A stretch of 64,000 nucleotides of DNA, from the NCBI GenBank assembly GCA_000091205.1, contig AP006499.2; one strand, 5' to 3'. How positions within the stretch are numbered: the first letter of the stretch is position 1; each line of letters begins with the position of its first letter. The stretch comes from Cyanidioschyzon merolae (taxonomy: Eukaryota). The notes under the pieces are model-generated. The model searched no databases, was not told the DNA's origin, and saw only the letters and a list, made by a program, of their open reading frames with translations. Positions 936 through 58,213 of the stretch are shown in pieces. Both the position numbers and the translations under genes were made by a program.

Positions 936-1868
936 CTAGGCTGCTTCCGCAATGTGTTCTTCGTCACGGGCTGGCGTCGCTAGCTCGGCTCGTGCATCTG
1001 CATTCGTCAGCGAGTTGGACGGTCCCGCGGGAGTGCGCATCTTCCCCGTGACACAAGCGGTTTCCTTGGCCTCAATATTGGCTACTCGTTCAAGATGCAG
1101 CGCCGAATCTCGCGCCAAACTTCTCGAGGTGGGTGCGGACTGCTCGGGTGAGGCGTTTCTTTCACGCGATGGATGCCTCATTTCCTGTGCAGGGCCTGAT
1201 AGTCGCGTATCGGGCGTTAACTCGCGCTCATCTTGTGCTGCAAGTCGATTCGTCACGAGCGGTTGCTGCAATACACGATTCATTGTGAACGCTGCTAACT
1301 CCTGCTCTTGATAGAGCTCCAACAGGGCGCGCTGGGCGTTGGCTTCGACGTCTGGGGTGACCTCACCCTGCAACGCCTGTTCGATGCTCCTCGCGTGCTC
1401 GGCTGCTTCTTGTGTCTCCAGCAGCAAGTCCTCTACACTATGCAAATCGATATGCTCGTTAAGCCTCTTCACAAGCGCCGTGCTTTTCTGGATCTGCAAT
1501 AGTGTCTGTTGCTCCAACTCTGCCGTTTCGATAAGAAGCAGCATCTCTTCGAGACGACTGAGGCACGTTTCCGCGTTTAGAACTGCTCGCTCTTGTACTT
1601 TCATTCGACGTAGCACCAACAGTGCTCGTTCACGGCGGCCTGTAGCGATCAGCGTTCGTGCAACGTCAAGCTCCCGAGCTGCGGCCTCTTCGTAGCGGTT
1701 ACGCAGTTTCGTGACGCGATCACGGGTAGCCTTGATAGCCAGAATCACCTCGTCTCGCTCAGTGATCTCTACCTGGTTCTCTGGGCGCCGGACGTCTTTA
1801 CGTCTGGCTCGTTTCCTGGGTATGACAGCATCAGCAACCGCTCTGTCGCTGACAATGCAGTTTCCCAT
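936..1868 (-). CDS. CHMP6: ESCRT-III subunit, Snf7 family (CHMP6/Vps20-like); start taken at internal Met with MGN N-terminus
   Basis: ORF 936..2027 (-). From MGNCIVSDRA... (myristoylation-type MG start) the sequence ITERDEVILAIKATRDRVTKLRNRYEEAAARELDVARTLIATGRRERALLVLRRMKVQERAVL...VEDLLLETQEAAEHARSIEQAL follows the CHMP6/Vps20 Snf7-domain pattern (coiled-coil charged heptads, acidic C-terminus). The upstream 53 codons of the ORF are treated as non-coding read-through. Confidence 0.65.
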   Translation of the reverse strand: MGNCIVSDRAVADAVIPRKRARRKDVRRPENQVEITERDEVILAIKATRDRVTKLRNRYEEAAARELDVARTLIATGRRERALLVLRRMKVQERAVLNAETCLSRLEEMLLLIETAELEQQTLLQIQKSTALVKRLNEHIDLHSVEDLLLETQEAAEHARSIEQALQGEVTPDVEANAQRALLELYQEQELAAFTMNRVLQQPLVTNRLAAQDERELTPDTRLSGPAQEMRHPSRERNASPEQSAPTSRSLARDSALHLERVANIEAKETACVTGKMRTPAGPSNSLTNADARAELATPARDEEHIAEAA

Positions 1869-2651
1869 GGAAAGCTCAACAGCGACAGCGTAATCAATAG
1901 CACCATCGCCATCGTCATCCGAAATCTGCCGTTCTTGTGCTGGCGGTACGCGCTGCCGCGTTCGGGTTCCCGCGGCTCTGACGGCAAGCGTTCCCTCCGG
2001 TCGTGTTGCTTGCATAGGTTCGAGCACCCGTCAAACGTATGCGTACAGTTCGGGAACTGAAACGAATGTTCGTGCTTCAACTTCATCAGACGTTGCGCTG
2101 CTTCCTGGATGGGCTTGTCCCGAAATTTCTCGTCGTTTTTGAGTTCCCACGTGCTGATGCGCAGCGATGCATTCTCGGAGGCTGAGCAGGTCAATGGACC
2201 AGTTCTTCAGGAGCATGGGCGTCACACGCGGGGACTGATGAAACGGGAACTCTTTATCGCATGGAGGGTCCTCTGGTTTCTAATACGCCGGGCGTCGCGA
2301 CAGCATTGGCAGAAGCGTTGCGAATCCTGCGGACTCGAAAGTCTGAATGAGGCCGTGCGAGCGCTGATCTGTGCTGGCTCCTGTCATACAGCGGCAAAGC
2401 GTCGAAGGCGCAACGCTGAAATGACGACCAGGTATCGTCCAACTAGGTGCGAGTTCGTTAGCATTGCTGCTCCACTTCAATTGTCGAATCTATAAATCTA
2501 AAGAAAAGCTCGAAAAACATCGTAAGGAAAGAACAGGATGAGCACCGATGTGTTCCATGATCATGTGGTACGACTTGTATACCTGATTAGAGACGACTGT
2601 CCGACATGCGATCCAGCAGCGTCTGTTTTTGGGCGCCGCGCAGACGCCGCT

Positions 2652-2891: not shown

Positions 2892-5566
2892 GACGAGCCT
2901 ACTGCGAAAGCGATGTGGCCTCTGGTTGCTCGCCCTGCATGGAAACGCACCTTCGATTTTCTCGCCATGTGACGTTCGATCAGCTCACCACACACCGTAT
3001 CGCGCATCCGACTACGCTCTATAGTCTTCTTCTGTACTGGTTTCAGCGCACGCCCGTACTCGTGGTTCGAGTACGTCGTACTGAATTCATGGATGGGAAT
3101 CGTGCAGCACCGAAACCTGCACGCGTTGGACGCGCTCGTCGAAATGGGCAGCGGCGCAGTATTTGCGAGTTTCAGCCTGTCCCGTGCCAAGGGCTGCTGC
3201 AAAATGACGCAAATTTTTGAGCTACTCCTTTTCCAGCTCGTTGAATAGCAAGGCGAATGTCCGCCTCGTGCCTCCCTACATCCGAAACATTACGAGGCTC
3301 TGGCGCGGTCGGATATACTCTTGCCAAAAGTCGTCGAAACGAACAATTTGGACGCTCATTTACTCACTGAATGCAGCGTACCATACCAATCGTTGCTTCT
3401 CGATACAGTGACGAGAGCGTCGAGATCGGTCCTGCCGTCGTCATGCCACTTGTTGATATGCTTCCTCACGACCACTGGGCCCGAACTTAGATAATATCGA
3501 GGCTCAGAAAAAAAGTCAGGCCGTGGTGCATCTTCAGTACCGCCCGTCGGTTGTTCCACAAAGGTTTGACCGAGGAATTCTGGGGGCATGTGAGCGCCTG
3601 GTAGCACCTCGCCCCGAACTCCGACAATCATCTCACTGACGTTGTACGTCAAGGCAAGTGGGGCCGAACAAGACCTTCCCGAAAAAGAAGCTGCAGAGTC
3701 CTTCATGGCTTCCCGCATCTCACAGTTTTGTAAGATTCTTCCCGTAGATGCGTTTTCGTACGGAGCTCTTGCCAATGATTTCACGCAGATCCTTTCACAC
3801 AGGCCGTTTTGCGTTCACGTACTTTCTCGTCCTCTTTCTGAGCGGATCTTTCTCTTCTTTCTTCTGTGGTTTCTTCACTGTCTCGTTTGCATGATGGAAG
3901 GGCACGGGTGCCGTCGCTTAGCTCTATGTCCGTTTCTCCCTTGGGTCCTAGACGCACTGGATGGATGTTGCGACGGATCTTGGCTTTCTCTATCTTTGTA
4001 TCCACTATACTTCGAGCATCTTTTCGCCAACAACCCCGATGCAAGCACGTCTGCGAACCGAAATGCGCCTTTCCATTCTCTTCTGCTATCGAGCACATAC
4101 GCAACGCCGTTGCTCACGGCTAGTGAGGCTAATGAACGGCTTTCCAGAGAAAAATTCGTCTACGAACGGTGTCACGGATGCGAATGAATCGTCTATGGAT
4201 GCGAAAGCTTACAAACGGCGTTTGACAGCATAGAAGCTGCTTCCGATTTGATACAACCAAGGAGAATAGGCTGCCACAAAGTGCAGATTAACGCCATCAC
4301 CGGCTGTGCGCTCTCTGGCCAGTTTTCGGGATGCAAAGCGACGTAGTCTACGAGCCGGACAGAAGACCACCGGAAGAAGAACCCGCAATGCGCTCCGATG
4401 AAGGAAGAGGCGTCAAACGATCCCGTCTGTTTGGGGATGATTCGGTGAGCAAACGACAGCATCGCCGCTCGGGCTGATGTCGCTTTCATTCCCGCTTGTC
4501 TTTTCTTTACGAAGAGCGGTGTGCCGCTACTCTAGGACCCCAACACAGGTCTACCATTTCTCCGGAATGAAGTCAGGTCGACTAAAACGAACATCCGTGC
4601 CACGTGTCGTCAGCGTTCGTGTTCCAGTACGAATTCGCTGGAGTGCGCTTCGTCAGCGTGCGATGCGCTCCCGAAGAAGCGCGCGTCGTTCTTCGCCTAT
4701 CTGCATCGCTTCACCACTGTTCGTTATCAAGGGTATGGAAACGTTGCATGCATGCTGTGGGTTTTTGGTAGTATTTCATAGAGAACGGATGCAGTGGCAT
4801 TGCCTGGCGAGGAAACTGTTGTATATATTGATTCTGATGAGTTCGAGTTCGATTGCTTGACGCTGAGCATATCGCCTAAGCGAACGTTCCTTCATCAACT
4901 TGCTGAAAGTTCAGTAGCTGATTCGTAAGAGGATGACCTGTTTCCGCAATCAAGCAGCAACAGCATAAAATCTTTCCACATTCTCACTCCATTCCGAAGG
5001 ATACAGTTATTTTGTTGCATACCTGCGAAGAAATAAACCAGGACAAAAAGTATATTCTGGTTGAGGTATTCTGGTACCACCGATTATGAGCGTAACGGTA
5101 GCGGCAGCGCGTCCGTGGGCATCGCCGCTGTCGCTCTTCGAACCGACGCCCTTTGTGGTTCGGCACTGCCGTTCTGTCTCCGTGCAGCGACCGCACCGGC
5201 GCTACAGGCGCTATTGCTGCCGGTTTCGGCAGGCTCGGCACACGATAGGGCGTATGAAACGACCAGAATATCCGAGATGAAGTATAGGTCATGTAACCTG
5301 AGAGTAGGAGGTTGATGGCTACCTCACCGCACACTGAAAGAAAAACACACACAAAGAAAATAAGAAACGAAAAATGCGCATAATCGGAGAACGCTGGCCT
5401 ATGGAAACGTTTTGTCCATGAAAAGAAAATGTGCCGCTGTCGCTGCGATCGGGTTGAAGGGCAGCGCGCCGGCGGCGGCGGCGGCAGCGCCAGCGACCCT
5501 AGACACTAGTCATAACCTCGCCGCTGCTGACATCATTCTATTGCCGCTGCGGCCTTTCAGAGCTTT

Positions 5567-7234
5567 TTGATGGGCAAGCTCTACCTTCTTTTCGAGGCAG
5601 CGTCGGGATATGCGATCTTTCGAGTGGTGGAGGCTGAAGACGTAGCATCTGGTACGACTGCGGTACAGTCCTCGTGGGGAGACTTCCACCGCTTTGCGAG
5701 CATCGTCAAGTTGCGAGCCTTCGAGCCGTACGTCTCAGCGGACCAGGCACTTGAGGACGTGAGTGCCGTGTCGGAAAATCGAGTGACGCCTTTCCTACTT
5801 GAGTTCGTTCGCGGTTATTTTGGCTCGAAAAGATGTCTTCTGGGAGTCTCGGAACCGCGGTTTGGCGCAGCGCTCCAGGAACAACTGGGAAAGAAGCACG
5901 TGAGAGTTGTTGCGGACGAACACATCCAGGAGCTTTTGCGAAACATCCGGCAGCACTTCGAGAAGTTTCTCAGTGCGGAGGTCTCGAGCGAGGAGCTCTC
6001 GAAAGCACAGCTCGGTCTGGCTCACGCGTTATCCCGTTCGCGCATCCAGTTCAATCCGCAGCGCAATGATCACGCCGTCGTCCAAGCGATTCATCTTATC
6101 GACCAGCTTGACAAGGATATCAATACTTTTGGGATGCGTGTCCGCGAGTGGTACTCCTGGCACTTCCCTGAACTTGCGAAGCTCGTGAGCGATATCGTTC
6201 TCTACTGCCGTTTGGTGTGTGCTCTGGGCATGCGCTCCGAAATGACGACGAAGCAGGAGGAGGACGTGAATAGCCTGCTCCATGGCGATGAGGAGCTCAC
6301 GCAGCGGATTCTTCGTGCAGCCCGCTCCTCAATGGGAACGGAAATCAGCCCTCTGGACATCATTCAGATCCGTTTGTTTGCGCAGAGAGTGATTCAAATG
6401 GCAACCTATCGGGACCATCTGCAGGGCTATCTTGGTCAGCGCTTATCGCTGATTGCACCGAGTTTGCGGGCGTTGCTCGGTGATCACGTCGCAGCGCGAC
6501 TCATTGCGCATGCTGGCTCTCTGGTGAACCTAGCAAAGTATCCTGCATCAACTGTGCAGATCCTTGGCGCAGAAAAGGCGCTTTTCCGGGCTCTAAAGCA
6601 AGCACGGGGAAAGCGGCTCGCGCGAACGCCCAAGTATGGGTTACTCTTCAATTCGACATTCATTGCCAAGGCAAAGCAACGAGCCAAAGGTCGCATTTCG
6701 CGTTACCTGGCGAATAAAGTGAGCTTGGCAAGCCGCATCGACTGCTTCCGCTCCGATAGAATCGGCGACACATTCGGTCGCAAGTTGCGAGAGCAGGTCG
6801 AGGAGCGGCTCCAGTTCTATGAAAAAGGCTTGCGACCTCGGCGCAATGCGGCCGTAATGACTGAGGCCATGAACGAGGCGCTTGCCACCAGCGCCATGGA
6901 TGACATGCGTGGAAGCGATATCGAGGAAACTCCGAGACCTGCAGCCGCTGGCCTACGCGCTGATCGGCTGGAAAATTCTTTGCTTGTTTTTGGCTCGGCA
7001 ACCAATGCGGATGCAGAAGGCGTACCGGAATCTGCGGCCCCGGAGACGCCAGCCCATGACGTCATGATGCGGAAACGAAGCCACGATGACACATCGTTCG
7101 TTGATGCGGGTGACGCCCATTTGACGACACTGGGAGCCCAGGATAGTTCTCGAGAAGCAATTCCTCGTGAAGCCCCGCGGAAGAAGAAGAAACAAGACAA
7201 ACATCGCGCCGAGGCGGTGCACGAAACCGTGTGA
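5567..7234 (+). CDS. NOP56: Box C/D snoRNP protein Nop56 (Nop5/Nop56/Nop58 family)
   Basis: 555-aa ORF with a NOP5 N-terminal domain ([14 protein letters not shown]), a Nop core domain (...[43 protein letters not shown] closely follows the Nop56 consensus [21 protein letters not shown]) and a lysine-rich KKKKQDKH C-terminal tail. Confidence 0.85.
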   Translation: [555 protein letters not shown]

Positions 7235-13300: not shown

Positions 13301-14356
13301 AGCGCATTCCTCTTGGAGACGCTGCTCGCGATCCCGCAGAAGCTGTAACTGCTTTTGCAACTGCAAGCTCTCCTCGGATGCTTTTCTGTACTCAGCATCA
13401 ACTTGACTGTACTCAGCAGTGATGCGAGTAAGCAGTCGCTCCAGATCTTGGGTTGTTTCCGTGAGTTCTTTGCCGAGTTCGCGCCATAAACGATCACGTT
13501 CCTCAGTCCGGATTCGGATTTCGTCACGCAGCGCCTGCAACTGCCGGCGCCGTTCGACCTCCTTTGCACGCGCTTCCTCAAGCTCTGTGACCGCTCGTAT
13601 TTTCTCACTCAGTTCCGTTTCGAGGGTCCCCAGCGAATTCGACCATTCGAGGCATTGGGCTTGCATGCTTCGACAGTTTCGTTGCTTTTGCTTCAGGTTT
13701 TCGAGGCGATCCCGCCAACGCTCTAGTTCCGAATGCAGAATCTTGAGTTCGGCGAGCTTCTGCTGCGCACACTTCTGAATCGCGATGAGGGCTTTTGCGT
13801 AACCGCGTGCCTCGAAAATATCGTCGAATTTTTCCTTGACTTTCTTCGGATCTTGCAACGGCCATAGGGACTCTTCTTGATGAACGAAAATCACGTTCTC
13901 TAGAACCGCCTGGCGCACACCAAGAAACGCTGGAGCCATCGCATTAATGTCATTGCATCGGTTTGAGGTTTTGATGTGCTGTCCGTCCTTGTCCCGAATG
14001 CTGAGGCTTGTCTCCACGGTGCTGAAACTCTGTTTCCCAGCAGTTGTGAGCCGAAGCTGGAGCTGGCGGTTCACGGTAATCTGTCGACCAAGCGCGTCTT
14101 CAAATAGCAGGCGAATTTTGGCCTTCGTTTCCTTGCTTTCACGCAAACGTGGATCGTGCACAAAAGCGGCGCCTTTGTCGACGAGCGGCGGCAACTCGCC
14201 AGTCGTTGCCAAGCGCAGGCACTCCACTATGGTAGTCTTTCCGGTGCCGTTCGCCCCCAGTATGACGGTTATCGGCGCCTGGAAGCGTAGGCGTTGCTCT
14301 TCATCCGGACCGAAACTCCGTACGCCTGAGAAGCCTAGTTTGATCAGACGTGACAT
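10388..14356 (-). CDS. RAD50: DNA double-strand break repair protein Rad50
   Basis: About 1322 aa. N-terminal Walker A ([20 protein letters not shown]...[29 protein letters not shown], cf. human MSRIEKMSILGVRSF...GPNGAGKTTIIECLKY), long coiled coils, a zinc-hook CPLCDR (...[12 protein letters not shown]...), and C-terminal signature/Walker B/D-loop ([42 protein letters not shown]...ILITHEERF). The ORF track starts at a GTG at 14362, and the first ATG is at 14356. Confidence 0.92.
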   Translation of the reverse strand: [1322 protein letters not shown]

Positions 14357-14440
14357 AAACACACGAACAGGCGACCTTTCTCGCGCCTAAACGACAAACG
14401 TTGCTGCGGTCGACAGCATCGTAGTGGCGGCGAACGCGCC

Positions 14441-16704
14441 CTATCCAAGACGTCTCCAACTGATGTGCAGACGCGTCCCAGTCTTTTCGGACCGGCCACC
14501 TACTAATGCATTCGACTTCTTCTCGTATATATCCATCTTGACAGATTGTCCCACAAAATGCTCTCGTGTCAATTCGGGAGGTCTCGTCTCCAGCACCGCA
14601 CATCTTATGTTGATTGCGGCATTAAAACGTCGGTTCACGAACTCCATATGTTTCTTGCCGTTGCTTTTAGAACTCACTCATGCACGTGGCCCTTCAACTT
14701 TCATCCTCCTTTCCATTTGCTCTTCCGTCAGCGCTCCGTACTTTTCTATATCTTCAGGGCTCAGCTGACACTTTTCCATCTCGACTCTCTGAAGTGTGCA
14801 CCCCGTTCATGGTGTGTATACGATGTTCGAAACTCATCTATCGGTATCGTAACGATACGCCTGGCGCATTCCTTGTACGTTTTTGTCGACGGAGCTGGCG
14901 TAGTCCCTTTTTTGGACGCCCTGCTGCATATGCTTCTACTAGCCTTTGACTCTCGTCCTCCGTGAAAGCGCTCAACTGATTGAAAAAGTTGGCGAATGCA
15001 CGCTGCTTCCTACAGTACATGTTCATACGCTGCCGAGCCGGCCGGGGCGTGGTACACTCTCCTCACAGCACATCCCAATGAGCAACGCGAACTTGTATGA
15101 ATTTCAGAAAAGCCTCAAAGTTCGCGCCGCGGCTCGTCACCTCGCTCAAAGCTTCCAGGTGCTCTTTCACTCCTGCATGCCATGTCTCACTTTTCTTCCT
15201 CGCATTCATGATTCCCGATTCTCGATAGAATCCCGCTCTCGAGAATCTCAAAAGACGCACGTCTTTCTGGCGCAAGTTACCGTCGATGCTCTCTTCCATA
15301 CGCTTCGGTGCTGCGATGGTTCTGATTATCGTGTGTTCCCATGGTCCGAGCCAGTGACAAAATCGTTACCCTGAACTTTCTGCGTCACTGGATCCGCCTT
15401 TTTGTTTTCTTCATGCTTCGTCATGGGCGATATCGAAGACGTAACTGGACGTTTCGCCTTCAAGCGCCGATAGTGTACGCACATGGCTACTCCATCGGTT
15501 TCGATTATCCCAGTGAATACCTTTTGCTTGCTTACTTTGAGTCGTTTGAAATCGAAGGTATTCTTCCAGTAGGTCTCCCGGTTTTCACCGGGGAACTCCG
15601 TGTTGCTTTCATCGAACTCCGGACGGATCTCCTTCGTGATGCTGTAGAGGACTCTGGAGTCGATGGTCACAAAATTTGACTCGATGTTGCACAACGGAAC
15701 GCAATTGAAGCGCTTCCCCATTAGGAAAGCCTTACGTCTCTCCCACTCTTCATTGTTTTTCCTTACTCAGCTTCATCTCCGCGTTGCGTTCTAGTTCTCG
15801 GTTCAAAAACATGAAATATCGCAAGACGAGGCGATTGTATCTTTCCTTATCTTTTTTTCAACTCTGATATCTTTTCCGCTGGACTCGCCAGCCCCAGTAC
15901 CGCACGGTGCTCTTGTATAACCGCACGGATTACGGAAGCTTCATTTGTGCCCTCGTTTGACGCCTTCTTGTCGACGAATTCGACCTCATCTTCATGCTTG
16001 GGATCCTTCGTGATGCCATTGATAATCGCCCACATTCCTTTGCGAGAGATGCCAGGGTACAGCGCAAACACGGCGCGTATCATGAAATGTTCGAGGTTCA
16101 CTGTGAAATGGTTCTTCAGGTTCGTGATGTACTTCATCGCTCCGTAGGTGTAAATATCCGCTTCACCCTTGTATCGAGTACCGTTGAAGCGGTATTCGGC
16201 GTAATTTTCGTGAACGCCATGCACTCGCTCATTTCTCCTCGACGGTTCCCCTGTACCAAGCATCAGGTGACGAATAAAGGTCTTGTCGAAAAACTCGTAC
16301 GGAACCTCGTCTGTTTCCATGTGCGTCACGTCGCGATACATCTCCTTTACGAAATGCAGCAGTCCTGACGATGCCTTTACAATACTCATGGGGTACGAGT
16401 CGACACGGTTTCTGATGGCGTCTCGCAACTTTTGCCTGCAGAGATCCTTGATATGCCCAAAAAGACAGGCTTTCACCACCATCTCGTCGTTGTGTCGTCT
16501 TTCGTGCGGGTTCTGACTTCGGGCTTCCCTGTTTTGCTTCTTCGTCTTGTCTTGTTCCTCTTTGCTCCGCCATGTTTTTCGTTGTCTCCGGCAGCCAGTG
16601 ACATTTAGCCTCCAGGTCCTCAACTTGCTTTTCCATAACTTTCTTGTATTTATTTTGGAAAGGAACGCACGTAGAACGCTTCTGCTACAAACGGCGAAAA
16701 TCAC
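14441..16704 (-). pseudogene. Degenerate Fanzor/TnpB-like nuclease ORF (copy 1), multiple frameshifts plus in-frame TGA
   Basis: Minus-strand ORF pieces 15847..16704, 15326..15721, 15063..15299, 14838..15026 and 14441..14677 concatenate into one protein homologous to copy 3. Motifs: [10 protein letters not shown] (RuvC-I-like GxDxGxT), YKECARRIVTIPIDEFRTSYTHHE (cf. TnpB V-x-V-NPAYTSQTC preceding the zinc finger), and ...KHMEFVNRRFNAAINIRCAV (TnpB RuvC-III ADxNAAxNIlrrG, but the catalytic Asp is Arg in this copy). There are two frameshifts around 15722-15846 and an in-frame TGA before the RuvC-III segment. Confidence 0.6.
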
Positions 16705-16913
16705 TTGAATGAGCTTACTTGAGGGTTGGAAAACAATTCAGCTGAAAAACTATACTTTGCTATTACTTGAACGCAAATACAACTTTTACGGTAGAACAAC
16801 ACGCAAATATTCAGGATCGCGTTTCCCTTCAACGGCGAGATACTCCTCCTGTCTCATGCCTGCCAGATATCCCAGGTGTGCGTATCGACCACGCTATATA
16901 GAACAAATAACAG

Positions 16914-17568
16914 AGACTAACGATGAACTAGCAACGATATAAATATTTATTCCCCCTAGATGAAACGTTAAAAACGGTAAAGGCTTCCCGTACTGTCGAA
17001 AGTTTACCTTACAGGCGGAGGGTCCCGCGAGCCGGGCGACTCTGCTGGGCTGGTGCCCGGTGTGCCTCTAAAGTGGCAGGTGCTGTGGCGAGACCTGAGC
17101 AACTCGTCCGAAACGCAGTTCAAGCTGGAATAAGGGGCATTTGGCCTGCGTTTCAGCGTCGCCCCGGTCGCAGTGGACTCCCAGCATATCGCTTCGCGCT
17201 GCCGCAGACAGTATGTCTGTCCGCGTAGCTTGCAGGCTCCCCGAATAATTATGTATTCCGACCTCGTGTCGAGTGCACCACGCCTCGAGTCAACGCCCGC
17301 AGCGGAACAGCAAAGCCGTACAGTCTCCGGGATATATCTGCTCTGGCGGTTTTGGCGCCACCGCGGGGGCCGCAAGGCAGGCACTCAGCACACGATAGCG
17401 TGTACAAAACGACCCGTATACTCGGGAGGAAGTAAAAGCAATGGAACTTGAGGGCAGGTGCTTCATGATGGACGCCTTTTCGATTACCACTATCCATCCC
17501 GCAATCTGGGATCCATGGTCGATGGAGACGAATTTTGTCATCGGAAAAAATCGATCGCCATCCCATCG
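16914..17568. repeat. Repeat A (655 bp), the 5' non-coding module of the Fanzor-like element; near-identical direct repeat of 18844-19497
   Basis: About 99% identical to 18844-19497, with only a handful of substitutions and one 1-nt indel by eye. A roughly 80% diverged homologue lies at about 55925-56550 inside copy 3. Confidence 0.9.
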
Positions 17569-17781: not shown

Positions 17782-18384
17782 ATGCAGAGACCTTTGGTTG
17801 CGCTGAAGATCGTTCTCGTGGGCAATAGTGCAGTGGGCAAGTCATCTCTCTTGCTACGATTTGCGGAAGGCACGTTTGCGGAACTGCCAGCCACAGTAGG
17901 CGTAGACTTTCGAGTGATCTCACTGGAAAACGTCCAGGGCTATCGTGTCAAACTCACCTGCTGGGACACCGCGGGACAGGAAAAGTTTCGCACCCTGACG
18001 TCATCTTATTATCGCGGTGCACACGGTGTTATTATGGTGTACGGTATAGATGATCCAGAGTCGCTGAAGCATCTTGAGACAGCTTGGCTAGAAGAAGCGA
18101 GACGGTATGTGAATAACCCAAACGCTGTTTATATGATAGTGGGCAACAAATCGGACCTGCCGACTGCTGTGGTGCCCAGGGCAGACGGGCGGCGACTCGC
18201 TGAGCGTGTTGGCGCACTCTTTCTCGAGACAAGTGCAAAGTCAGGTTCTGGAGTATCGGAGTGCTTTGTAGAGCTTGTTGCACGTATATTGGAGGCACAA
18301 CCCCATGTAACAGGTGATGGCGAGCAAGCAGGAGTTCAACTGGAAGCCGGTCCGTATCATGAAACAGCCTCATGTCTTTGTTGA
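17782..18384 (+). CDS. Rab-family small GTPase, Rab18-like
   Basis: LKIVLVGNSAVGKSSLLLRFAEGTF...VGVDF...WDTAGQEKFRTLTSSYYRGAHGVIMVYGIDD...VGNKSDL...ETSAKSGSGVSECFVELVARILE and a C-terminal CLC prenylation motif. This matches the Rab18 pattern GVGKSSLLLRF / [27 protein letters not shown] closely. The ORF track begins at 17677, and I take the Met at MQRPLVALKIV as the start. Confidence 0.8.
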   Translation: MQRPLVALKIVLVGNSAVGKSSLLLRFAEGTFAELPATVGVDFRVISLENVQGYRVKLTCWDTAGQEKFRTLTSSYYRGAHGVIMVYGIDDPESLKHLETAWLEEARRYVNNPNAVYMIVGNKSDLPTAVVPRADGRRLAERVGALFLETSAKSGSGVSECFVELVARILEAQPHVTGDGEQAGVQLEAGPYHETASCLC

Positions 18385-18843
18385 TCATCGCCGAGCTGAG
18401 CATCGCGCTGTGCACACTAGACATGATTCGGAAGCGATGGACCTGGATTTCGAGCCGAGTGGGGAGGCTCTGCAGCTGAATAGCACCAAGCTTGTAAAAT
18501 TCTCCTAACAACATACATATTTGCAGACATTAGGTAGTGCACAATTTGATGACCCGCACAACAGCGAGTTTGCGGTATGTCTCGAAAATCCAGTGGGCAT
18601 GTGCAGAGATACACATATGAGGTACAAGGCAAATTCCACAAGAATCCGACGATGCGTCTCAAGTGTACGGATTGTTTGTCCACGTCATCGGTGCATAAAG
18701 AAGCCGCTACACGGCACCGTGACGCAAAGACAGGTATCACACCGACGCTTTCAGAAAAGTACACACTTTGCGTAGCGCATTGCTGCGCGTCTTTCCAAGG
18801 TCCAGCGAAACCGAATCGAGCCTAGATCGAGGTGCACAGCAGG

Positions 18844-19497
18844 AGACTAACGATTAACTAGCAACGATACAAATATTTATTCCCCCTAGATTAAACGTTA
18901 AAAACGGTAAAGGCTTCCCGTACTGTCGAAAGTTTACCTTATAGGCGGAGGGTCCCGCGAGCCGGGCGACTCTGCTGGGCTGGTGCCCGGTGTGCCTCTA
19001 AAGTGGCAGGTGCTGTGGCGAGACCTGAGCAACTCGTCCGAAACGCAATTCAAGCTGGAATAAGGGGCATTTGGCCTGCGTCTCAGCGTCGCCCCGGTCG
19101 CAGTGGACTCCCAGCATATCGCTTCGCGCTGCCGCAGACAGTATGTCTGTCCGCGTAGCTTGCAGGCTCCCCGAATGATTATGTATTCCGACCTCGTGTC
19201 GAGTGCACCACGCCTCGAGTCAACGCCCGCAGCGGAACAGCAAAGCCGTACAGTCTCCGGGATATATCTGCTCTGGCGGTTTTGGCGCCACCGCGGGGGC
19301 CGCAAGGCAGGCACTCAGCACACGATAGCGTGTACAAAACGACCAGTATACTCGGGAGGAAGTAAAAGCAATGGAACTTGAGGGCAGGTGCTTCATGATG
19401 GACGCCTTTTCGATTACCACTATCCATCCCGCAATCTGGGATCCATGGTCGATGGAGACGAATTTTGTCATCGGAAAAATCGATCGCCATCCCATCG
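18844..19497. repeat. Repeat A' (solo copy of the element's 5' module), direct repeat of 16914-17568
   Basis: Near-identical to repeat A. It is not accompanied by the Fanzor-like ORF and lies between the Rab18-like and p23 genes. Confidence 0.9.
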
Positions 19498-19622: not shown

Positions 19623-20333
19623 ATGGTGCTTACTCCAGATTTTTGTTGGGCGCAACGCAAAGACAAGGTATTCGTCACCGTGAAGGTTCCAAACGTGCAG
19701 AAAGACACTGCTGTCCTGAAGGTCACCCCCGAAGGACAGGTGTACTTTAAGGGAACCGGCGGTGAGATTGGGCACGAACGGGAGTATGAGCTCGACATTC
19801 GGTTGCTTCACGGAATCAAGGCGGAGGAAGCACAGCACGGCATCCAAGCGAGGCAAGTGTACTTTGTGTTGCCTAAAGCGGAGGCCGGTGAATGGTGGCC
19901 ACGACTCCTTCACGATCCGGGCCGAAATGTACACCTGTCCGTGGACTGGAACCTCTGGGTCGACGAGGACGAGGATGATCAGTTTGATTTCGGTAGTCAC
20001 TTTGGATCGCGTGATATGGCCGACCTGGACTTTGGAATGGGTGACGACGACGACCTTGGTGACGACGAGGACGACGACGACGACGACGAAGGCGTTGATG
20101 GCGAGGGCGGCCTCGGCGACACGGAAGAAAAGGAGGACGCCCAGGAAGCCGCGGCGGACGTGACGCCGACGTTGTCTGAGAACCACATGCACCGCGATCA
20201 GGAGGCAGATGAGAATGACGTTGTTAAGAGCGAGCCAGGTACCGTGACTGAGGCTGCCAAGGATCTGGGTAAAAATGCCGAGTCCGTACAGGCAGCGTCA
20301 ACCGAGGGGCCTGCGTCAGTGTTTTCCTCTTGA
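19623..20333 (+). CDS. HSP90 co-chaperone p23/Sba1-like (CS domain) with poly-acidic C-terminal tail
   Basis: PDFCWAQRKDKVFVTVKV...WPRLL...LSVDWNLWVDEDEDD parallels human p23 (WYDRRDYVF...WPRLTKE...LSVDFNNWKDWEDD), followed by D/E-rich low complexity (GAC/GAG repeats at about 20040-20100). Confidence 0.75.
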   Translation: MVLTPDFCWAQRKDKVFVTVKVPNVQKDTAVLKVTPEGQVYFKGTGGEIGHEREYELDIRLLHGIKAEEAQHGIQARQVYFVLPKAEAGEWWPRLLHDPGRNVHLSVDWNLWVDEDEDDQFDFGSHFGSRDMADLDFGMGDDDDLGDDEDDDDDDEGVDGEGGLGDTEEKEDAQEAAADVTPTLSENHMHRDQEADENDVVKSEPGTVTEAAKDLGKNAESVQAASTEGPASVFSS

Positions 20334-41698: not shown

Positions 41699-41858
41699 GC
41701 AGGTGCCTCGCGTAACGAGTGCTGTCCAGGGGTTGCGTTGGCGCCGGTGTGCTCATGTCCATGAAGCGATTTGCTGGACGGTGTGCATGATTGTACTGTT
41801 ATGTACTGTAATACAAAGTTTGTACGGAATGCCGGCTTTACGCGCACTGGGGCTGCCT

Positions 41859-48455: not shown

Positions 48456-50379
48456 GTCGGCATGGTGTTCACGTGGATACGCAGATGCTAGAGCATGGTG
48501 TGCACTGCGGGAACAGGTCATACTTGGAGGTGTCGACGCTTGCAATGCTAGGATCGTTGGTCGTCGCTGTCAATGAGCGATATCCGCGGGACTGCTTGGC
48601 TGGGCGATGTCACCAAGCTTTGATGAAAGTTTTTCCTCGAAGCGAAAATTTTTTATATAAATACACCGGATAAAACCCAAGTGGATCGTGTCTACAACGC
48701 TGCTGCTGGCGCAGACGAGGCAATGCTCTGGCATCAGAGGCCTTAGTATATGACAAGCAGCGGGAAGTAGCGCGGGTTTTCATGGGTACGCTTCACGCCG
48801 GTGGTATCACGAACGATCATCCCCGGCGTCTGTGGGAAGAGATGGATATGGCTGGGCGGCAGAGATGAGCTGCGCGTATCATGATACCCATGGCAGCGTA
48901 AAATGGAATGCCTCACGAGACCAAGTAGACCGTTCAGGTTCAAGTTTGGCGCTCGATCCGATTTCTTCTACAGAACCGTATCTGCCGGCTTTTTGAGTAA
49001 CTGCTTGTTTTTTCTCGTTAAATGCCGACTGCACCCACACACACACCGGGCTCTTCTTTCGCTCCAGTTTCGGGGCGAAAAGTCGAAGGATGTGGATCGG
49101 AGCGTTCAAGTCCCGATTTAGCTACTTTTGGCCGTTGTTTACGCAAATCACACGCAGGTAGAAGCAGCTATCTCCGCTTCGCTTATCATTTCCATCTCGT
49201 TTGTCGACAGTCTCGACGCACTCCGCGCAGCGGTGACATGTAGCTGTTGGCATTGGGTCCTATACGTCTACGAGACCTGCTGCTACGTGCACTGCGCCGT
49301 CGCACCTGAACGTTTACTTGATCGAACGGTACATTCTCGTGATGAGTACAGAAGGTTAACCTCTGTGCCTTGCTCCGTTTTCGCGACAGGTGTCGTCAAC
49401 GACGACCACGGGCATCCAGCGGGCTATCCGTTCGGCGCGTACGCTGTCCGCAGCAGGTGCAAGCGCTCACCGTTCCATTCCATAGAGGACTTGAGGAGCG
49501 CGATGCTTTCCAGGATAAAGCAAGTACCTGAAGCAGAATCCAGGCTGAGGAACAAGTCGAGCATTTCGATTTGTCTACGCTCTCTTCCTGCAAAGCAGTG
49601 ATACGTTCGCCGCAAAAAGCGATCGCTGCGCTGACTCAACCCCGAGTTTAAGGTCCATTTCTATGCCAGTAGTAGAGACGACAGCCTCTAGGCGCATATA
49701 CAATGCGAGGTATCATGCTGCTGATGCATTGCATTTCTCTGATGCCTCTCAAGTGAGGGGGATGTTCGTTTCGAACGGAATCGATTGGTTGAAGTAAGAC
49801 GTTTGGTGAATGTTCCGGATGGTCTGGTGGATCATTCGTCAAGGAACGAAACGTCCGGTACGTTTCTTCGTCCGTGGAGCCGTGCGAAGGGCTTCGCCAA
49901 CGATTTCGCTTGAAACACGAAGATCGGGAGCTTGGAAGCCGCGTGCTTTCCGCATACTGTACATAAGGAAAGGAGAAGAGAGCAGGCCTTTGCGTTGGAA
50001 TTCGGTGGTGGTACCACTTATCTTACGTACCGTATTACGAGAGCCCCGCGAATAACGTTGAAGACGGTTGGATAACGAATCCAGTGGCAAAGCGTCGACG
50101 CAGCTACTTCGAAACCTGATTAAGAAACCTACACTACGATTGCATTCCAAAGCACTTATAGTCTCTCATCTCAAATTCGTTTTACCCCCCAGGTGCATGT
50201 CATCAAATTCATTTTCGTGGTTTATAGCAAATATGTTCGAAGTGCTCTCATTTGGAAGAAATAGAAAATCCATGGAAAGGGGCGGACCTGGAAGTCAAGG
50301 ATCCTGCAGGCTCGATGTCGCCGGGTTCAACAGCTTTTGGAAAAAAATCCTCTTCTTGGCAACCATAGAGCGAAGAAGA

Positions 50380-50770
50380 ACAAGTGACGGAGAAGAACAA
50401 GAAGGGAGATAGGTGAGAAAATGTATTCGTCCGAAGTGACGATGACGAGACTTTAGTGTCACAGAAGACGCGAGTTCTAGGAATCCTCCTATCGCTGAGT
50501 TCAACCAACGGCAGGAAACGCATTGAGTTCGTGAACCGAGACTTTAATACCGCCATCAATATCAGACGATGTGTGGCGTTGGAGACGAGTCCCGAAGAAC
50601 CAAGGCAATGCAACTTCATGATGCAGCCTCTGACGCTCGTCGTACGACTGGATACACCGAGGCCGATAGCAGGCGGCCGGGGGAAAAAGACTGCGAAGCG
50701 TTTGCGGAACAGTATGTATACACTTACCGTTCAGGATCTTAGGGCGTTGTCCGTTTTCACTCATCACATA
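50380..50770 (+). mobile_element. Truncated 3' fragment of the Fanzor/TnpB-like element (copy 2), plus-strand orientation
   Basis: Plus-strand frame reads RVLGILLSLSSTNGRKRIEFVNRDFNTAINIRRCVALETSPEE, homologous to copy 3 RVKFRGLLAMESATSCNKKWMEFVNRDFNAAINIRRRAVMERR. Downstream, the conserved tail aggcggccgggggaaaaagactgcgaagcgtttgcgg matches the rc of the copy 1/3 tails (gtaggtggccggtccgaaaagactgggacgcgtctgcac). Confidence 0.5.
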
Positions 50771-53371: not shown

Positions 53372-53467
53372 ACCTCGAGCCTTCAATCCTATGCAGGTAT
53401 ACGCTGCGTTGCCTGCGTAATGTCGTAGTAACCGTGAAGCTTGTCGTGGAAAAGTGCAGCACCGACA

Positions 53468-56400
53468 GCGAACGCCTTTCAAAAGAAAAACGCTGCCGCC
53501 GGCAGCGTACAGCCGTGGCGAAAAACCCGCCCTCGACAAGACGTCTCCAGCTGACGTGCAGACGCCTCCCAGACTTTTTTGGACCGGCCACCTACTACTG
53601 GTTTCAACTTCTTCTCATATAATTCCACCTTGTGAAGTTCCCCATAAAATTCTCTCTCGTCAAGTACGCAAGTCTTCTTTCCATCACCGCCCTTCTCCTG
53701 ATATTGATAGCGGCATTAAAGTCGCGATTCACAAACTCCATCCATTTCTTGTTGCAGCTGGTAGCACTTTCCATTGCAAGTAGTCCTCGAAATTTAACCC
53801 TCCTTTCCATTTGCTCATCTGTCAGCGCTCCGTACTTTTATATATCTTCAGGACTCCGCTGGCACTTTTCCATTTCGACCCTCTGAAGTGTACACCCCAG
53901 TTCATGGTGTGTATGGGACGTTCGAAACTCATCTACAGGTATTGTAACAAAACGCCTTGCGCACTCCTTGTATGTTCTTGCCGTTGGAGCTGGTGTAGTC
54001 CCTTTTTGGGTCTTCCAGCGCCCTGCTCCGTACGCTACTAGGAGCCTCTGACTTTCATCCTCCTTCAAGGCACTCAACTGATTGAAAAAATTCGCGAATG
54101 CACGCTGCTTCCCACAATACAAACTCATTCGCAAACGAGCCCACCGGGGCTTGCTGTACTCCTCCCACAGCGCATCCCAATGGGCGATGCGAACTTCCAT
54201 GAATGTCCGAAAAGCGTTAAAGTCTGCTCGTCGGCTCGTCACCTCGCACAAAGATTCCAGGTGATCCTTCATTCCTGCATTCCATGTCTCGATTTTCTTC
54301 CTCGCATTCATTATACCAGATTCTCGATAGTATCTTGCTCTCGAGAACCTCAAAAGACGCTTGCCTTTCCGACGTAAGTGTCCGTCAGTACCATCTTCCG
54401 CGCGCTTGGGTACTGTGATGTTTATTATATTCGTGTTTGCGGGGTCCGCGCCACCGACAAAATCGTTGTTCTCATGCACTTCTTGCGTCGCAGGATCCGC
54501 CTCTTTGTTTTCTTCAAGCGCCGATAGTGTACGCATATGGATACGCCATTGGTTTCGATTATCCCAGTGAATACCTTTTGCTTGCTTACTTTGAGACGTT
54601 TGAAATCGAAGGTACTCTTCCAGTACGTCTCCCGATTTTCACCGATGAACTCTGTCTTCCTTACATTGAACTCCGGACAGATCTCCTTCATGATGCCGTA
54701 GAGGACTCTGGAGTCGATAGTCACAAAATTCGACTTGATGTGGCACAATGGAACTTCGTTGAAGTGCTTCTCCAGAACCGCAGCCTTCCGTTTCGCCCAC
54801 TTTTCATTTTTTTCCACACTCAGTTTGATCTCCGCTTTGCGTTCGACTTCTCGGTTCAAAAACATGACATAGTGCAGGATGAGGCGATAGCGTCTTTCTT
54901 CATCTTTTTTCATATCTAGTACCTCTTCTGCTCGATTCGCCAGCCCCAGTGCCGCACGATGCTCATGCATAACCGCACGGATCACAGAAGCCTCATTCTT
55001 TCTCCTGCGCGATGTCTTCTTGTTTACAAATTCGGTCTCCTGTTCGTTTTTACTAACGTTCGTGACGCCATCGATGATGGTCCATATCCCTTTGCGAGAC
55101 AGGTCCGGGCGGAGTGCGAACACGGCGCGTATCATGAAACGTTCGAGGTTCATCGTGAAATGATTCTTCATGTTCGTGAGGTACCTCATGGCCCCGTGGG
55201 TGTGCATATCCGCGTCACCCTTGTATCGAGTACCGTTGATGCTACAGAAGATATATTTTTCGTGGAGGGCGTGCACTAGCTCATTTTCACTCCGCATATC
55301 CCATGTGCCAAGCATCAGGTGACGAATAAAGGTCTTGTCAAAAAAACTCGTCCGGAACCTCGACTGTTTCTGTTCCCGTCACGTCACGATACATCCCCTT
55401 CACCAAATGCATTAGTCCCAAAGAAGCCTCACGAACACTCGTGGAGTACGAGTCGACACGATTTCTGATGGCCTCTCGGAAATCTTCCTTGTACGGATCC
55501 TTGATATGTTTAAGAAGACAGGCTTTCACCACTATCTCGTCGTTGTGTCGTCTTTTGTGCAGCTTCTGACGTCGGGTCTCCCCGTTTCGCTCCTACGTCT
55601 TCTCCTGTTCCCCTGAGCTCGGCTCTGATTTTCGTTTTTTCCCAGCAGCCGGCGGCACTGGGCCTCCAAGATCCTTTACTTACATCTCCAAAATTTTTTT
55701 GAAAGAGCACGCTCTTTGAACGATTCTGCGATAAAGCGCGAAAAAACACTTGAGTAAACTAAACTGAGGGTTCAAAAACGATTCAATTGAGAAACTATGC
55801 CACGACTTCAACACAAATACATCTTGTACGGTAGAGCAAGAAGACAATGAGTAGAATCGCGTTTCCCTTCAACGGCGAGAAACCAATACTGTCTCATGCC
55901 TGCCAGGATGGAGGTGCACGTATCGACCGCGCTATATAGAACAATGAAGAGAGACTAACCACTAACTGGCAACGATATGAGAAGTTCGTTCCCCCTCTAT
56001 GATAAACGTTACAAGTGGAAGGCTTTCCATGTTGTCGAAGGTTTACGTTCTAGGTGGAAGGTCCCTCGAGCTGGACGAATCTGCCGAGCTTGCGCTCCGT
56101 GCGACTCTGAAATGGCGGCCACTGTAGTGAAATCTGTGCAACTCATCCGCAGCGCAGTTTACTCTAGGACTCGGAGCGAGTAGAATGCATCTGGGCGACG
56201 CCAATGTTGCAGTTCTCTCCTAGCGTGCCGCTTCGCGCTGCCGCAGGCAGTAGGTCTACCGGTCCAGTTTGCAAGCTCCCGGAATAATGATAAACCCTGA
56301 CCCTGTGGCGGGTCGACGACGACTGGAGCGGACGCCGTCAGTGGTATGGCACAGCTCGTCTTTCTTCGTGTTGTAAAAGCACAAGTAGTATAGGCGGTCT

Positions 56401-56560
56401 TGCGGGTGGAGCTATGCAGGCACTCGGTGCACGATAGAACAAACGAAACGACCAGTTTCTCCCAGAGAACGTATACATCATGGATCCTAAAGGTAGCACA
56501 TATCGTGAAGGAAGCTTCCCTGAATGCCAGTATCCATGGTCAACGTAAACATTCTTTCAA
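53468..56560 (-). mobile_element. TnpB/Fanzor-like element, copy 3 (3' tail + degenerate ORF + diverged repeat-A-like 5' module)
   Basis: Colinear homology with 14373-17568 over the entire length, including the non-coding 5' module (55700-56550 vs 16700-17560) and the 3' tail. It fills the IMPase(-)/CBS-domain(+) intergenic region. Confidence 0.6.
53604..55749 (-). pseudogene. Degenerate Fanzor/TnpB-like nuclease ORF (copy 3); RuvC-III Asp retained, one nonsense codon and at least 2 frameshifts
   Basis: Pieces 55338..55532, 54425..55315, 53838..54536 and 53604..53810 (-). Motifs: [18 protein letters not shown] (RuvC-I-like), YKECARRFVTIPVDEFRTSHTHHELGCTLQRVEMEKC (TS-motif plus degenerate Zn-finger), and MEFVNRDFNAAINIRRRA (RuvC-III D-x-NAAxNI-RR). 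There is a TAA after ...SPEDI where copy 1 has GAA (EKYGALT...). Confidence 0.6.
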
Positions 56561-56710: not shown

Positions 56711-58213
56711 TTGAAACTTATAATGTGGGCCAGCGTTCTTCGGTTCTTACCAAAGCATAAGGGAAACTTAGGTCGTTGTATGTCCGTGAGAGCCAGCGTC
56801 TTGCGTTCTGAGCATACGGCTCCGTTTTGGGAAGCACCATTGAGCAGGGCGTTGCCGCTGTACCAGGAGGGTTTCCTGCCCCGAACGGCTTCTGTGAGCC
56901 AAGCCGAGCCGACGCGCACCGAAACTGCACCCGTGCGCTTTCAGATGGCGCCAAGTGGAGCGGGGGACTCGTTGGTTTTTTTGCATGAAACATCGTCGGT
57001 ACGTGGTGCTCTCGAAGAGATGGTGCACCGGAATACCGCCTTTGTTCTCGTTGTGGGCGACCCCTTTAACCGGTCATCGCCAAAGGCGGACGTTCCTGCG
57101 TCAACTTCGGATATTGTGCGCATCTCCAGCGAAGCTGAGGGTGATGATCAGCGCGTTGATACCGAGCATGCTGCCGTGATCGGGTTGTTCACAGAGCGCG
57201 ACCTCTTGCGCTGCCTGGCGGACGCCGTCGCGGAGCAGCGCACCGGCGAAGCTGCAGCGCTCTCATTCCGTCTGCGGAAGGCGATGAGTCCGCTTTACGA
57301 TCGGTTTGGGACGCTAAAAGTGTCATCAAATACCATATATGATGCTGTTATGGTCATGCGGGAACGGAACATTCAAACCATACCCATCATTCGCGAGGAG
57401 GAGCACGAAGAGGACTACATCTTGCCGGGGGGTCATCCAGCAGCGGGCGAGAGCGCTTCCAGCAGCTACACCCTGGCATTGCCACCTCGATCGTTTTGTG
57501 GCGTTCTGACAGCACGCGATGTGGCTCGCTTCTTCCTCGCCCAAGATGCTAGCGTCCAAGATGCAGTCTGTAGCCTGGAGACGTCGACTGACGCTGGCGT
57601 CAGAGCATCGCGATCGACACGTCCGATGCTTCTGCGTCATCTCTTGTCTTGGCGCCTGCGTCGACTCTTTGAAGGCGCTCGACCTTTAAGTGATACTTTC
57701 CTCGAAGAAGACATCGTCGTGTACGAATCCGAGCATTACAGGGTGGTTTCAGTCCCTCGCTCGGCATCAGTGCGGGACGCGATCGCGGTCATGGCACAGC
57801 ACGATGTTCGTACGCTTCTGATTAGTGAGGACGCTAGTTCCGGCTTCGATGCAGCCGGACCCTATCCCAGTATTTACGGTGTCATTACGTTGCGAGATCT
57901 CATGAGGCAGGTCTTCTATCCACGAAGAAATCCGCTGGCGCTCAGCATGCAGACTCTCTTTCGTGAGCGCTGGACAGCGGCAGGGGTATCGAGGCCGCAA
58001 CTCGCAGCCGAGGAGCGCAAGTACGGAATCTCACCTGATGATGAAGTGGCGCATGCGCTGCGCTTGGTCGGTGGTATGAACGAGCGGCACATCCCAGTGT
58101 ACGTCTACAATGACGCTGATCAGACGAGCAACTGCGTCGCGATGGTGAGCGTCAAGGAGATGCTGTCGGGTGTCCATGCGGCAGAGCAGCGGCGGCGCGG
58201 GCAACGGTACTAA
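56711..58213 (+). CDS. CBS-domain-containing protein
   Basis: 500-aa ORF with several CBS-like segments (VIGLFTERDLLRCLADAV, CGVLTARDVARFFL, YGVITLRDLMRQVF, VAMVSVKEMLSGV). The N-terminal half is low-complexity. Confidence 0.5.
   Translation: MKLIMWASVLRFLPKHKGNLGRCMSVRASVLRSEHTAPFWEAPLSRALPLYQEGFLPRTASVSQAEPTRTETAPVRFQMAPSGAGDSLVFLHETSSVRGALEEMVHRNTAFVLVVGDPFNRSSPKADVPASTSDIVRISSEAEGDDQRVDTEHAAVIGLFTERDLLRCLADAVAEQRTGEAAALSFRLRKAMSPLYDRFGTLKVSSNTIYDAVMVMRERNIQTIPIIREEEHEEDYILPGGHPAAGESASSSYTLALPPRSFCGVLTARDVARFFLAQDASVQDAVCSLETSTDAGVRASRSTRPMLLRHLLSWRLRRLFEGARPLSDTFLEEDIVVYESEHYRVVSVPRSASVRDAIAVMAQHDVRTLLISEDASSGFDAAGPYPSIYGVITLRDLMRQVFYPRRNPLALSMQTLFRERWTAAGVSRPQLAAEERKYGISPDDEVAHALRLVGGMNERHIPVYVYNDADQTSNCVAMVSVKEMLSGVHAAEQRRRGQRY

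Follow-up and report, generated by a model that had tools for sequence, protein, structure and literature searches.

At positions 14340-14460 of the window, by which the whole 64,000-nucleotide stretch of contig AP006499.2 is meant here, a spacer of 34 nt separates the first six codons of Rad50 from the 3' end of a 3-kb repeat. This arrangement raises the question why the end of a transposable element should abut the start of a host gene. The first-pass annotation of the window had offered two answers: either the element targets nucleosome-free divergent promoters, or its ends now supply promoter or 5' untranslated region (UTR) function. The analysis presented here suggests that the junction is the decayed right end of a transposon of the CMe-1A type encoding Fanzor1, a eukaryotic TnpB, and that the family of this element mostly places its right end just upstream of host start codons in divergent intergenic regions. 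Taken as a whole, including the mechanism proposed below, this account is considered fairly probable.

Junction of Rad50 with the decayed end of copy 1

The gene at the junction encodes a protein that is 99% identical to a RAD50 record of equal length (P0218, 1322 aa). Orthologs were found with 55% identity in assembly GCA_041825655.1 (P0219) and with 46% identity in Cyanidiococcus. Together with the identities of the inositol monophosphatase (see below), these values place the host among the Cyanidiophyceae, the class of red algae to which C. merolae belongs; the host was taken for an uncultured species other than C. merolae.

The limits of the repeat cores were placed with nhmmer and a hidden Markov model (HMM) of the full element, which was trained on 26 full-length relatives. 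For the copy next to Rad50 (copy 1), the alignment ends at position 2664 of the 2685 model positions. The 34 nt between this point and the Rad50 ATG resemble, by eye, a decayed arm of the terminal hairpin of the family, with GAAAGGTCGCCTGTTCGTGTGTTT directly before the ATG, and probably contain the decayed 3' arm of this hairpin and thereby the right end. Because the spacer is still hairpin-arm-like and the HMM alignment stops at 14391, the true right end of copy 1 would lie 0-34 nt from the Rad50 ATG. The closeness of the Rad50 ATG to the element tail that the first-pass annotation had pointed out thus stands, while its figure of 20-45 bp is replaced by a range of 0 (hairpin remnant) to 34 nt (HMM end).

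A Fanzor1 transposon of the CMe-1A type

Self-comparison of the window aligned 14424-17417 with 53515-56456 in the same orientation and with 75.5% identity; the second region is referred to as copy 3. In both copies the minus strand is the coding strand and is interrupted by frameshifts and stops. The stitched protein has about 650 aa and contains the split RuvC motifs GxDPG, DEFRTS, and NRDxNAAxN, the third of which reads NRDFNAAINIRR when written out. Copy 1 has at least four frame breaks and has lost the RuvC-III Asp (NRRFNAAIN). Copy 3 has kept all three RuvC motifs, but they are split over frames or by stops, so that neither copy holds the D-E-D triad intact in a single open reading frame (ORF).

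Close relatives of the element protein (n=70) are all metagenomic and carry DUF8286 as sole annotation; an exhaustive search for relatives returned 4685 cluster representatives. Pfam searches with the ORF fragments and the stitched protein gave only a weak, sub-threshold match to TNB (PF07282, E 0.07 to 5e-4), and sequence searches of the PDB with a single sequence or a 12-member profile gave no match. A 42-member family profile, in turn, matched the PDB chains of Parasitella PpFz (2e-24), Spizellomyces SpuFz (3.5e-20), and Guillardia GtFz (9.3e-17), and matched TnpB weakly (E 0.02). An AlphaFold2 model of an intact relative (P0047; predicted local distance difference test score 86.4) was compared with known structures by Foldseek. 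The top seven matches were Fanzor1 proteins (E 1e-17 to 1e-15; template modelling score 0.74 for SpuFz), followed by Cas12 and TnpB, at a sequence identity to the solved Fanzor1 proteins of only 12-16%. The catalytic residues D421, E592, and D658 (P0047 numbering) are invariant in the family, and an ORF of at least 540 aa is retained in about 6 of 27 full-length copies. The profile matches, the P0047 model, and the structural matches tie the family to Fanzor1, of which the window copies are therefore pseudogenes. The element is almost certainly a CMe-1A-type Fanzor1 transposon. RNA-guided DNA cleavage by the family is predicted by analogy. A target-adjacent motif could not be derived, as the 5' ends of the composites are ragged.

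CMe-1A was described from Cyanidioschyzon merolae as a family of about 150 copies of about 3 kb, which share some 80% identity with the consensus (Bao & Jurka 2013, Mob DNA 4:12, PMC3627910). It has one Fanzor1 ORF, which is intact in some copies only, and no terminal inverted repeats (TIRs), and its target site duplications (TSDs) could not be determined; its 5' 635 bp are 95% identical to TE-N2_CMe, a separate family of about 70 copies (PMC3627910). Similarly, copy 1 with its 5' module is a composite of about 3.18 kb (14391-17568), consisting of a core of about 2.5 kb and a 655-bp module (repeat A), has a single Fanzor1 ORF and no TIRs, and belongs to a family whose copies are 75-87% alike and of which few are intact. 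As in CMe-1A and TE-N2_CMe, the 5' 655 bp also form a separate repeat family: repeat A was found attached to cores and as solo copies, namely as A' in the window and in L014/L022, L048, and L073. In contrast to CMe-1A as described, at least four alternative 5' modules occur here. Membership in CMe-1A/TE-N2_CMe fits these features and is assigned by the published description, not by alignment to the Repbase consensus.

Ends of the element and the predicted omegaRNA

Most cores share a start point (CGCTCGGTG/CGGTCGATA). The module upstream of it varies between copies, with at least four alternatives found, and its 5' limit is ragged. Repeat A was therefore rejected as an integral left end, since most cores begin without it and bear other modules. 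The 3' ends, in turn, are fixed, while the 5' parts are variable and truncated at different points. End-to-end alignment of the element ends gave inverted-repeat scores no better than those of shuffled sequences, indicating the absence of TIRs, and TIR-type ends were rejected. Helitrons, which carry Fanzor1 in Chlamydomonas, begin with 5'-TC and end with 3'-CTRR, their hairpin is located 10-12 nt ahead of the 3' terminus, and they insert between A and T. Helitron ends were also rejected: in the present family the terminal hairpin reaches the very end, the last bases are GGT, GCC, GCT, and the like, and the first base of the flank is mostly G or C.

In 39 non-redundant copies, the 3' tail can be aligned over about 250 nt beyond the last RuvC motif and ends in a long hairpin; its conserved part, of about 200 nt, has a sharp end. 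The information content drops to background about 12 nt after GGCGTT, and this loss of consensus in the flank marks the right end. In the fold proposed for the tail, AGUAGUAGG...CCACUACU form a closing long-range stem that encloses internal hairpins, and a terminal hairpin of about 20 bp comes after it; two subfamilies have kept this hairpin with different sequences. In this structure 86% of the cells pair, compared to 39-62% with slid partners, with few compensatory changes. It was taken from a ribosum-scored fold of the better-preserved copies; RNAalifold on the whole tail alignment returned a near-empty consensus. Copy 3 folded with a z-score of -3.5, two other copies with -1.7 and -0.9, and copy 1, in which the terminal hairpin is lost, with -0.7. 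The tail matched no Rfam family. Based on its position and on the analogy to solved Fanzor1 systems, the tail is predicted to comprise an omegaRNA scaffold and the right end of the element. A CTATATGAG block is found about 23 nt ahead of the point where the closing stem starts; its conservation is good, but not above that of many coding blocks. This block and CTATATAG in the segment joining repeat A to the core resemble TATA boxes, and neither is statistically outstanding.

Two independent assemblies (L086 and L087, from JGI and Logan) begin at the identical base, window position 14519. Relative to the Rad50 ATG, this base is 163 nt upstream, and the predicted closing stem starts a few bases after it. 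The shared break is most likely a repeat-induced assembly break and not a transcript end.

Empty orthologous sites in a sister species

Orthologous loci of a sister species were taken from NCBI assembly GCA_041825655.1 and several metagenome contigs of the Joint Genome Institute (JGI). The divergent start codons of Rab18 and Rad50 are 282 bp apart in this species, and the order p23-Rab18-Rad50 is kept. Likewise, the CBS-domain gene and the inositol monophosphatase (IMPase) gene are 517-967 bp apart, and the order kinase-CBS-IMPase is kept. Searches of these loci with the element HMM and repeat A gave no match. In the window, the gap between Rad50 and Rab18 measures 3425 bp; subtraction of core and repeat A leaves about 250 bp, with 34 next to Rad50 and 213 next to Rab18. 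The insertions are present in all contigs of the window's own species. Since the sister gaps are empty and the own-species contigs are all filled, the most parsimonious reading of these sequences is that copies 1 and 3 are insertions into ancestral head-to-head promoter regions.

Placement across independent insertions

A scan of hot-spring metagenome contigs gave 351 related stretches, and 80 loci were kept. Clustering of tail plus flank at 96% identity reduced these to 39 independent sites, most of them from samples that also hold the window's species, as indicated by the 100% identical IMPase carried by L090 and L091. Host genes were called from the longest ORF, a codon-usage score trained on long ORFs, and inspection. 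A stricter caller based on the codon score missed real genes and, as the loci centre on elements, its background was biased; its counts were not used as a null.

A same-strand host gene starts less than 450 nt from the scaffold end at 32 of the 39 sites (p 4e-6 to 4e-5 against equal orientation), and two more sites are uncertain. The median distance to the ATG is 67 nt from GGCGTT and about 55 nt from the right end, and 21 of the 32 starts lie within 100 nt of the scaffold end. Pfam domains were found in 18 of 20 tested host ORFs, including eIF5B, ATP synthase, HSP70, alanyl-tRNA synthetase, phosphoglucomutase, KTI12, and others, and RPL37a, SUMO, and an E2 enzyme were recognized by eye. At four sites (L045, L056, L019, and L024) the host ATG is only 1-5 nt from the right end. 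In L045, 1-2 nt separate the right end from the start codon of KTI12, whose Pfam match starts with the first residue.

On the 5' side of the element, the nearest confident gene is divergent at 9 of 12 classifiable sites, and the intergenic regions containing these repeats comprise 11 divergent, five tandem, and three convergent ones. Against a count-based null of 0.25, this preference has a p-value of 4e-4. For random points in the empty gaps of 282-967 bp, a median distance of 140-480 nt to the ATG would be expected; the closeness of the right ends to start codons is therefore harder to explain by chance than the divergent preference. The repeat-A end faces a gene start at 9 of 13 sites, which is not significant, and it is farther from its gene than the right end, at distances of 28-565 nt. 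On these observations, the placement bias of the family toward divergent 5' regions near start codons is regarded with high confidence as real and general. The placement rule appears to be new in the literature searched, a search that was incomplete; the word 'promoter' occurs nowhere in the main text of Bao & Jurka, which seems to leave the rule unmentioned (PMC3627910).

With these data, the layout described in the first-pass annotation is largely borne out. Copy 1 fills the gap between Rad50 and Rab18, and copy 3 lies in that between IMPase and the CBS-domain gene, of which only the proposed start had to be moved, as 56711 is a TTG and the first ATG is at 56723. In both copies the 3' tail points to the minus-strand gene and the repeat-A module to the plus-strand gene, and solo A' ends 125 nt upstream of the p23 ATG at 19623. 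The claim that full copies occupy bidirectional promoter regions extends to a third, decayed composite in the window and to the sites elsewhere, where the promoter bias that the annotation had made a matter of checking was found. The comparison with empty orthologous loci, which it had also suggested, turned out in the same direction.

Proposed explanation and alternatives

The preferred explanation is that transposition machinery would act in trans on a non-autonomous element and insert it into open DNA of promoters or 5' UTRs, and that copies would persist where the host gene can still be transcribed. Host transcription would then start in the element tail or read through from the displaced promoter, which would now drive the Fanzor and omegaRNA unit, too. 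The host 5' UTR sequence beside the right end would form the guide part of the omegaRNA in a copy that is active. Homing of the TnpB/Fanzor type would protect an existing insertion and not choose new sites. Copies 1 and 3, being dead, would be passive spacers with whatever promoter activity their tails have.

Because 0-90 nt remain between right end and ATG and the old shared promoter lies 3 kb away, transcription of such host genes would either begin within the tail or cross the dead Fanzor ORF as read-through from that promoter. At an ATG 1-5 nt from the right end, as in the case of KTI12, the 5' UTR and promoter would have to be part of the element or result from read-through out of it. Donation of a promoter or 5' UTR by the tail to host genes is considered possible but somewhat doubtful. 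Selection on the tail as a promoter is not supported by conservation, and the lack of extra conservation (see below) together with the loss of the hairpin in copy 1 argues against a strongly selected promoter sequence. Targeting of nucleosome-free promoters and survival of insertions only in such places are not distinguishable by the present placement data.

Several points weigh against the preferred explanation. The host gene calls are crude, and five of the 39 sites break the placement rule, as does the internally deleted copy at 50147-50715 in the window, which has no same-strand gene after it. With a share of divergent gaps in the intergenic DNA of about 40%, the divergent enrichment would be weak (p 0.015 and 0.09). 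In a divergent gap, the gene past the 3' end of the element is on the strand of the element in either orientation, which by itself produces a same-strand excess. With about 75% divergent and the rest mostly tandem regions, about 85% same-strand starts are expected, as observed, so that an orientation-specific mechanism is not required. The covariation in the tail is modest, and its structure was derived from the same sequences. Pairwise identity is 0.78-0.81 in the tail compared to 0.80-0.87 in the decaying ORF, i.e., the tail shows no extra conservation. Finally, the copies and their flanks yielded neither a transposase nor a TSD, and no target motif was found beyond the right end.

Some of these points are shared by the best surviving alternative, in which insertion is near-random and copies merely persist in divergent intergenic regions, the tail having no host function. 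Divergent regions would be the longest and least constrained non-coding DNA, and a short core promoter would be re-formed or kept in the remaining bases. The conservation of the tail, the destroyed hairpin of copy 1, the marginal enrichment under a length-weighted null, and the flanks without target motif all suit this alternative. It does not account well for right ends that lie much closer to the ATG than random points would, and in L045 and L056 the 1-2 nt left between right end and ATG are too little for a promoter. Moreover, displacement of a promoter by 3 kb should rank among the more harmful intergenic insertions. Tolerance as the sole cause is therefore regarded as rather unlikely. Under it, the pattern would amount to ordinary transposon accumulation in the least harmful places of a compact genome.

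A second alternative is one-ended copying driven by the nuclease. The Fanzor-omegaRNA complex would cut a guide-like site in a host 5' UTR, and repair would copy the donor from the right end, yielding fixed 3' ends, ragged 5' ends, and copies near gene starts. The fixed 3' ends, the differing and variously truncated 5' modules, and the lack of TIRs and recognizable TSDs, as also reported for CMe-1A (PMC3627910), are in line with this process, as are tandem element arrays just upstream of genes. In L052 (about 4283-4374) and in L073 (about 683-779), the 5' module of one element is preceded, at a distance of about 130 nt, by the tail of another Fanzor copy, which indicates tandem or repeated insertion at one gene-proximal spot. 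Fixed 3' ends, ragged 5' parts, and arrays leave room for unusual copying, but ragged 5' ends can equally result from later deletions, and the 3' flanks of different copies have no detectable similarity. The known role of TnpB and Fanzor is the retention of the transposon at the donor site, and they are not known to choose new sites, which also counts against one-ended copying. We know of no experimental precedent for it, and it is judged distinctly improbable.

Domestication as a regulator, in which promoter-proximal Fanzor and omegaRNA would regulate neighbouring genes like the bacterial TldR, reportedly a domesticated TnpB acting as a transcription factor, is highly improbable: the position at the start codon would direct the guide to the host 5' UTR, but copies 1 and 3 and most of the 27 full-length copies are frameshifted pseudogenes, conservation is uniform as in neutral decay, and the insertions are absent from the sister species. 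A TldR-like element, i.e., an intact, nuclease-dead ORF at a conserved locus, was rejected on the same grounds.

Implications

Little is known about the movement, landing sites, and omegaRNA transcription of Fanzor elements in eukaryotes, and published work has focused on the nuclease as an editing tool. Dozens of independent copies located a few to about 100 bases before start codons, together with empty sites in a sister species, offer a testable system for the transcription start of the omegaRNA, the use of the tail as a host promoter, and the preference for open promoter DNA. The sister family, with about 150 copies, is found in C. merolae (PMC3627910), an alga that can be manipulated genetically. 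In its strongest form, the proposed explanation would make the family a promoter-resident transposon whose right end serves many host genes as a functional promoter or 5' leader and whose guides are the 5' UTRs of these genes, which is quite unlikely. If it were true, on the order of a hundred host genes would be concerned, provided that the copy number is similar to that in C. merolae. An RNA-guided nuclease would then be tied to gene starts through guide-dependent spread among 5' UTRs or through co-transcription of omegaRNA and mRNA.

Features of the window

The features on which the above rests and their neighbours are compiled in Table 1.

Table 1. Coordinates, strands, and supporting evidence of the transposon-derived features and adjoining genes in the window
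Feature	Position	Strand	Evidence and remarks
Strongly decayed Fanzor remnant	3045..3814	-	hmmsearch on six-frame translation; nhmmer
Repeat-A-like fragment	5228..5317	-	self-BLAST; about 250 nt upstream of ATG 5570
Rad50 coding sequence, 1322 aa	10388..14356	-	ATG 14354-14356; codon score 183
Spacer from Rad50 ATG to last HMM-aligned element base, 34 nt	14357..14390	-	nhmmer; comparison with family consensus
Copy 1 core, CMe-1A-like Fanzor1 pseudogene	14391..16890	-	HMM aligns 16890->14391
Copy 1 3' tail, predicted omegaRNA scaffold, overlaps ORF end, degenerate	14391..14605	-	tail alignment, pair counts, folds
Junction segment between module A and core, with CTATATAG	16891..16912	-	common to copies 1 and 3; missing from solo A'
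Repeat A, TE-N2_CMe-like 655-bp module, 5' end of composite copy 1	16913..17568	-	self-BLAST
Rab18-like GTPase gene, 200 aa, divergent from Rad50	17782..18384	+	Pfam Ras, E 3.8e-47
Solo repeat A', 98.6% identical to A	18843..19497	-	self-BLAST
p23/CS-domain gene	19623..20333	+	Pfam CS; synteny with sister species
Internally deleted Fanzor copy	50147..50715	+	5' part 50147-50408, C-terminal/tail part 50466-50715; about 2 kb of the middle missing
Inositol monophosphatase gene, 285 aa	52514..53371	-	P0338 100% identical; PF00459
Copy 3 3' tail, predicted omegaRNA scaffold	53458..53599	-	closing long-range stem and about 20-bp terminal hairpin; minimum free energy -63.2 kcal/mol, z -3.5
Copy 3 core, CMe-1A-like Fanzor1	53459..55928	-	HMM 55928->53459
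Repeat A'', 5' module of copy 3, identity to A about 69%	55951..56456	-	self-BLAST
CBS-domain gene	56723..58213	+	first ATG 56723; ORF opens at 56711 with TTG; sister ortholog divergent from IMPase

The Rab18-like ATG at 17782 lies 213 nt past repeat A, and the ortholog of the sister species likewise has 200 aa; an exact look-up of the Rab18-like protein returned no record. A and A' are direct repeats around this gene, and their 98.6% identity stands out against the 68-75% of other copies. Such likeness suggests that gene conversion has taken place or that a local duplication or a TE-N2-like hop occurred recently. Scans of the window for Rfam families and tRNAs were empty, by which a known RNA gene is ruled out as the identity of repeat A.

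The right end of copy 3 at 53458 is 86 nt from the ATG of IMPase, which is 80% identical to its counterpart in the species of GCA_041825655.1 and 64% identical to that of Cyanidium caldarium. This insertion is present in further samples (L001, L090-L092). The Fanzor remnant at 3045-3814 lies in a third divergent gap, between genes at 936-2015 (minus strand) and 5570-7234 (plus strand), and the fragment at 5228-5317 is probably the 5' module of a decayed third composite with the same layout as copies 1 and 3. Between this remnant and the gene at 936-2015, a perfect tandem repeat (two units of 120 nt) occupies 2652-2891. A minus-strand ORF (50501-51133, 210 aa) overlaps the tail of the internally deleted copy. 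In a 99% identical contig (L001), an NRDLNASIN motif at about position 1520, just past window position 64000, probably belongs to another Fanzor copy.

A second dispersed repeat family, unrelated to the Fanzor element, occurs with about 67% identity in three places (25419-25752, 39493-39739, and 49330-49635), and also at 26007-26288 and 39998-40280. Further tandem repeats were found at 41858-42126 (69-nt unit, about four copies, 92-95% identity) and just downstream of the CBS-domain gene at 58471-58603 (72-nt two-copy repeat, 95%).

Comparison with known systems

The concentration of insertions just upstream of genes is shared with Tf1 of fission yeast, P elements, and many miniature inverted-repeat transposons (MITEs), which insert in open chromatin and spare coding sequences. 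These elements depend on known integrases or transposases and generate TSDs. In contrast, TSDs were not found here, and the gene-proximal end of the Fanzor element is always the omegaRNA end.

TnpB with its omegaRNA in IS200/IS605 and IS607 elements is a distant homolog (profile E 0.02). TnpB takes its guide from the DNA just outside the right end, and its renewed cutting of the vacated donor site leads to the element being copied back in. Unlike these bacterial elements, the window element has no TnpA, encodes a protein about twice as long, and resides in a eukaryotic nucleus.

Among eukaryotic elements, SPu-1 has 33-bp TIRs and TA duplications (PMC3627910), neither of which is found in the window element. 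The solved Fanzor1 proteins SpuFz1, GtFz1, and PpFz1 (PDB 8gkh, 9cer, 9cf0; Saito et al. 2023, PMC10432273; PMC11423790) differ from the present family in sequence, with an identity of only 12-16%. They have in common with it the predicted fold and the split RuvC site, and probably also a conserved, structured non-coding region that overlaps the 3' end of the ORF and extends up to the right end.

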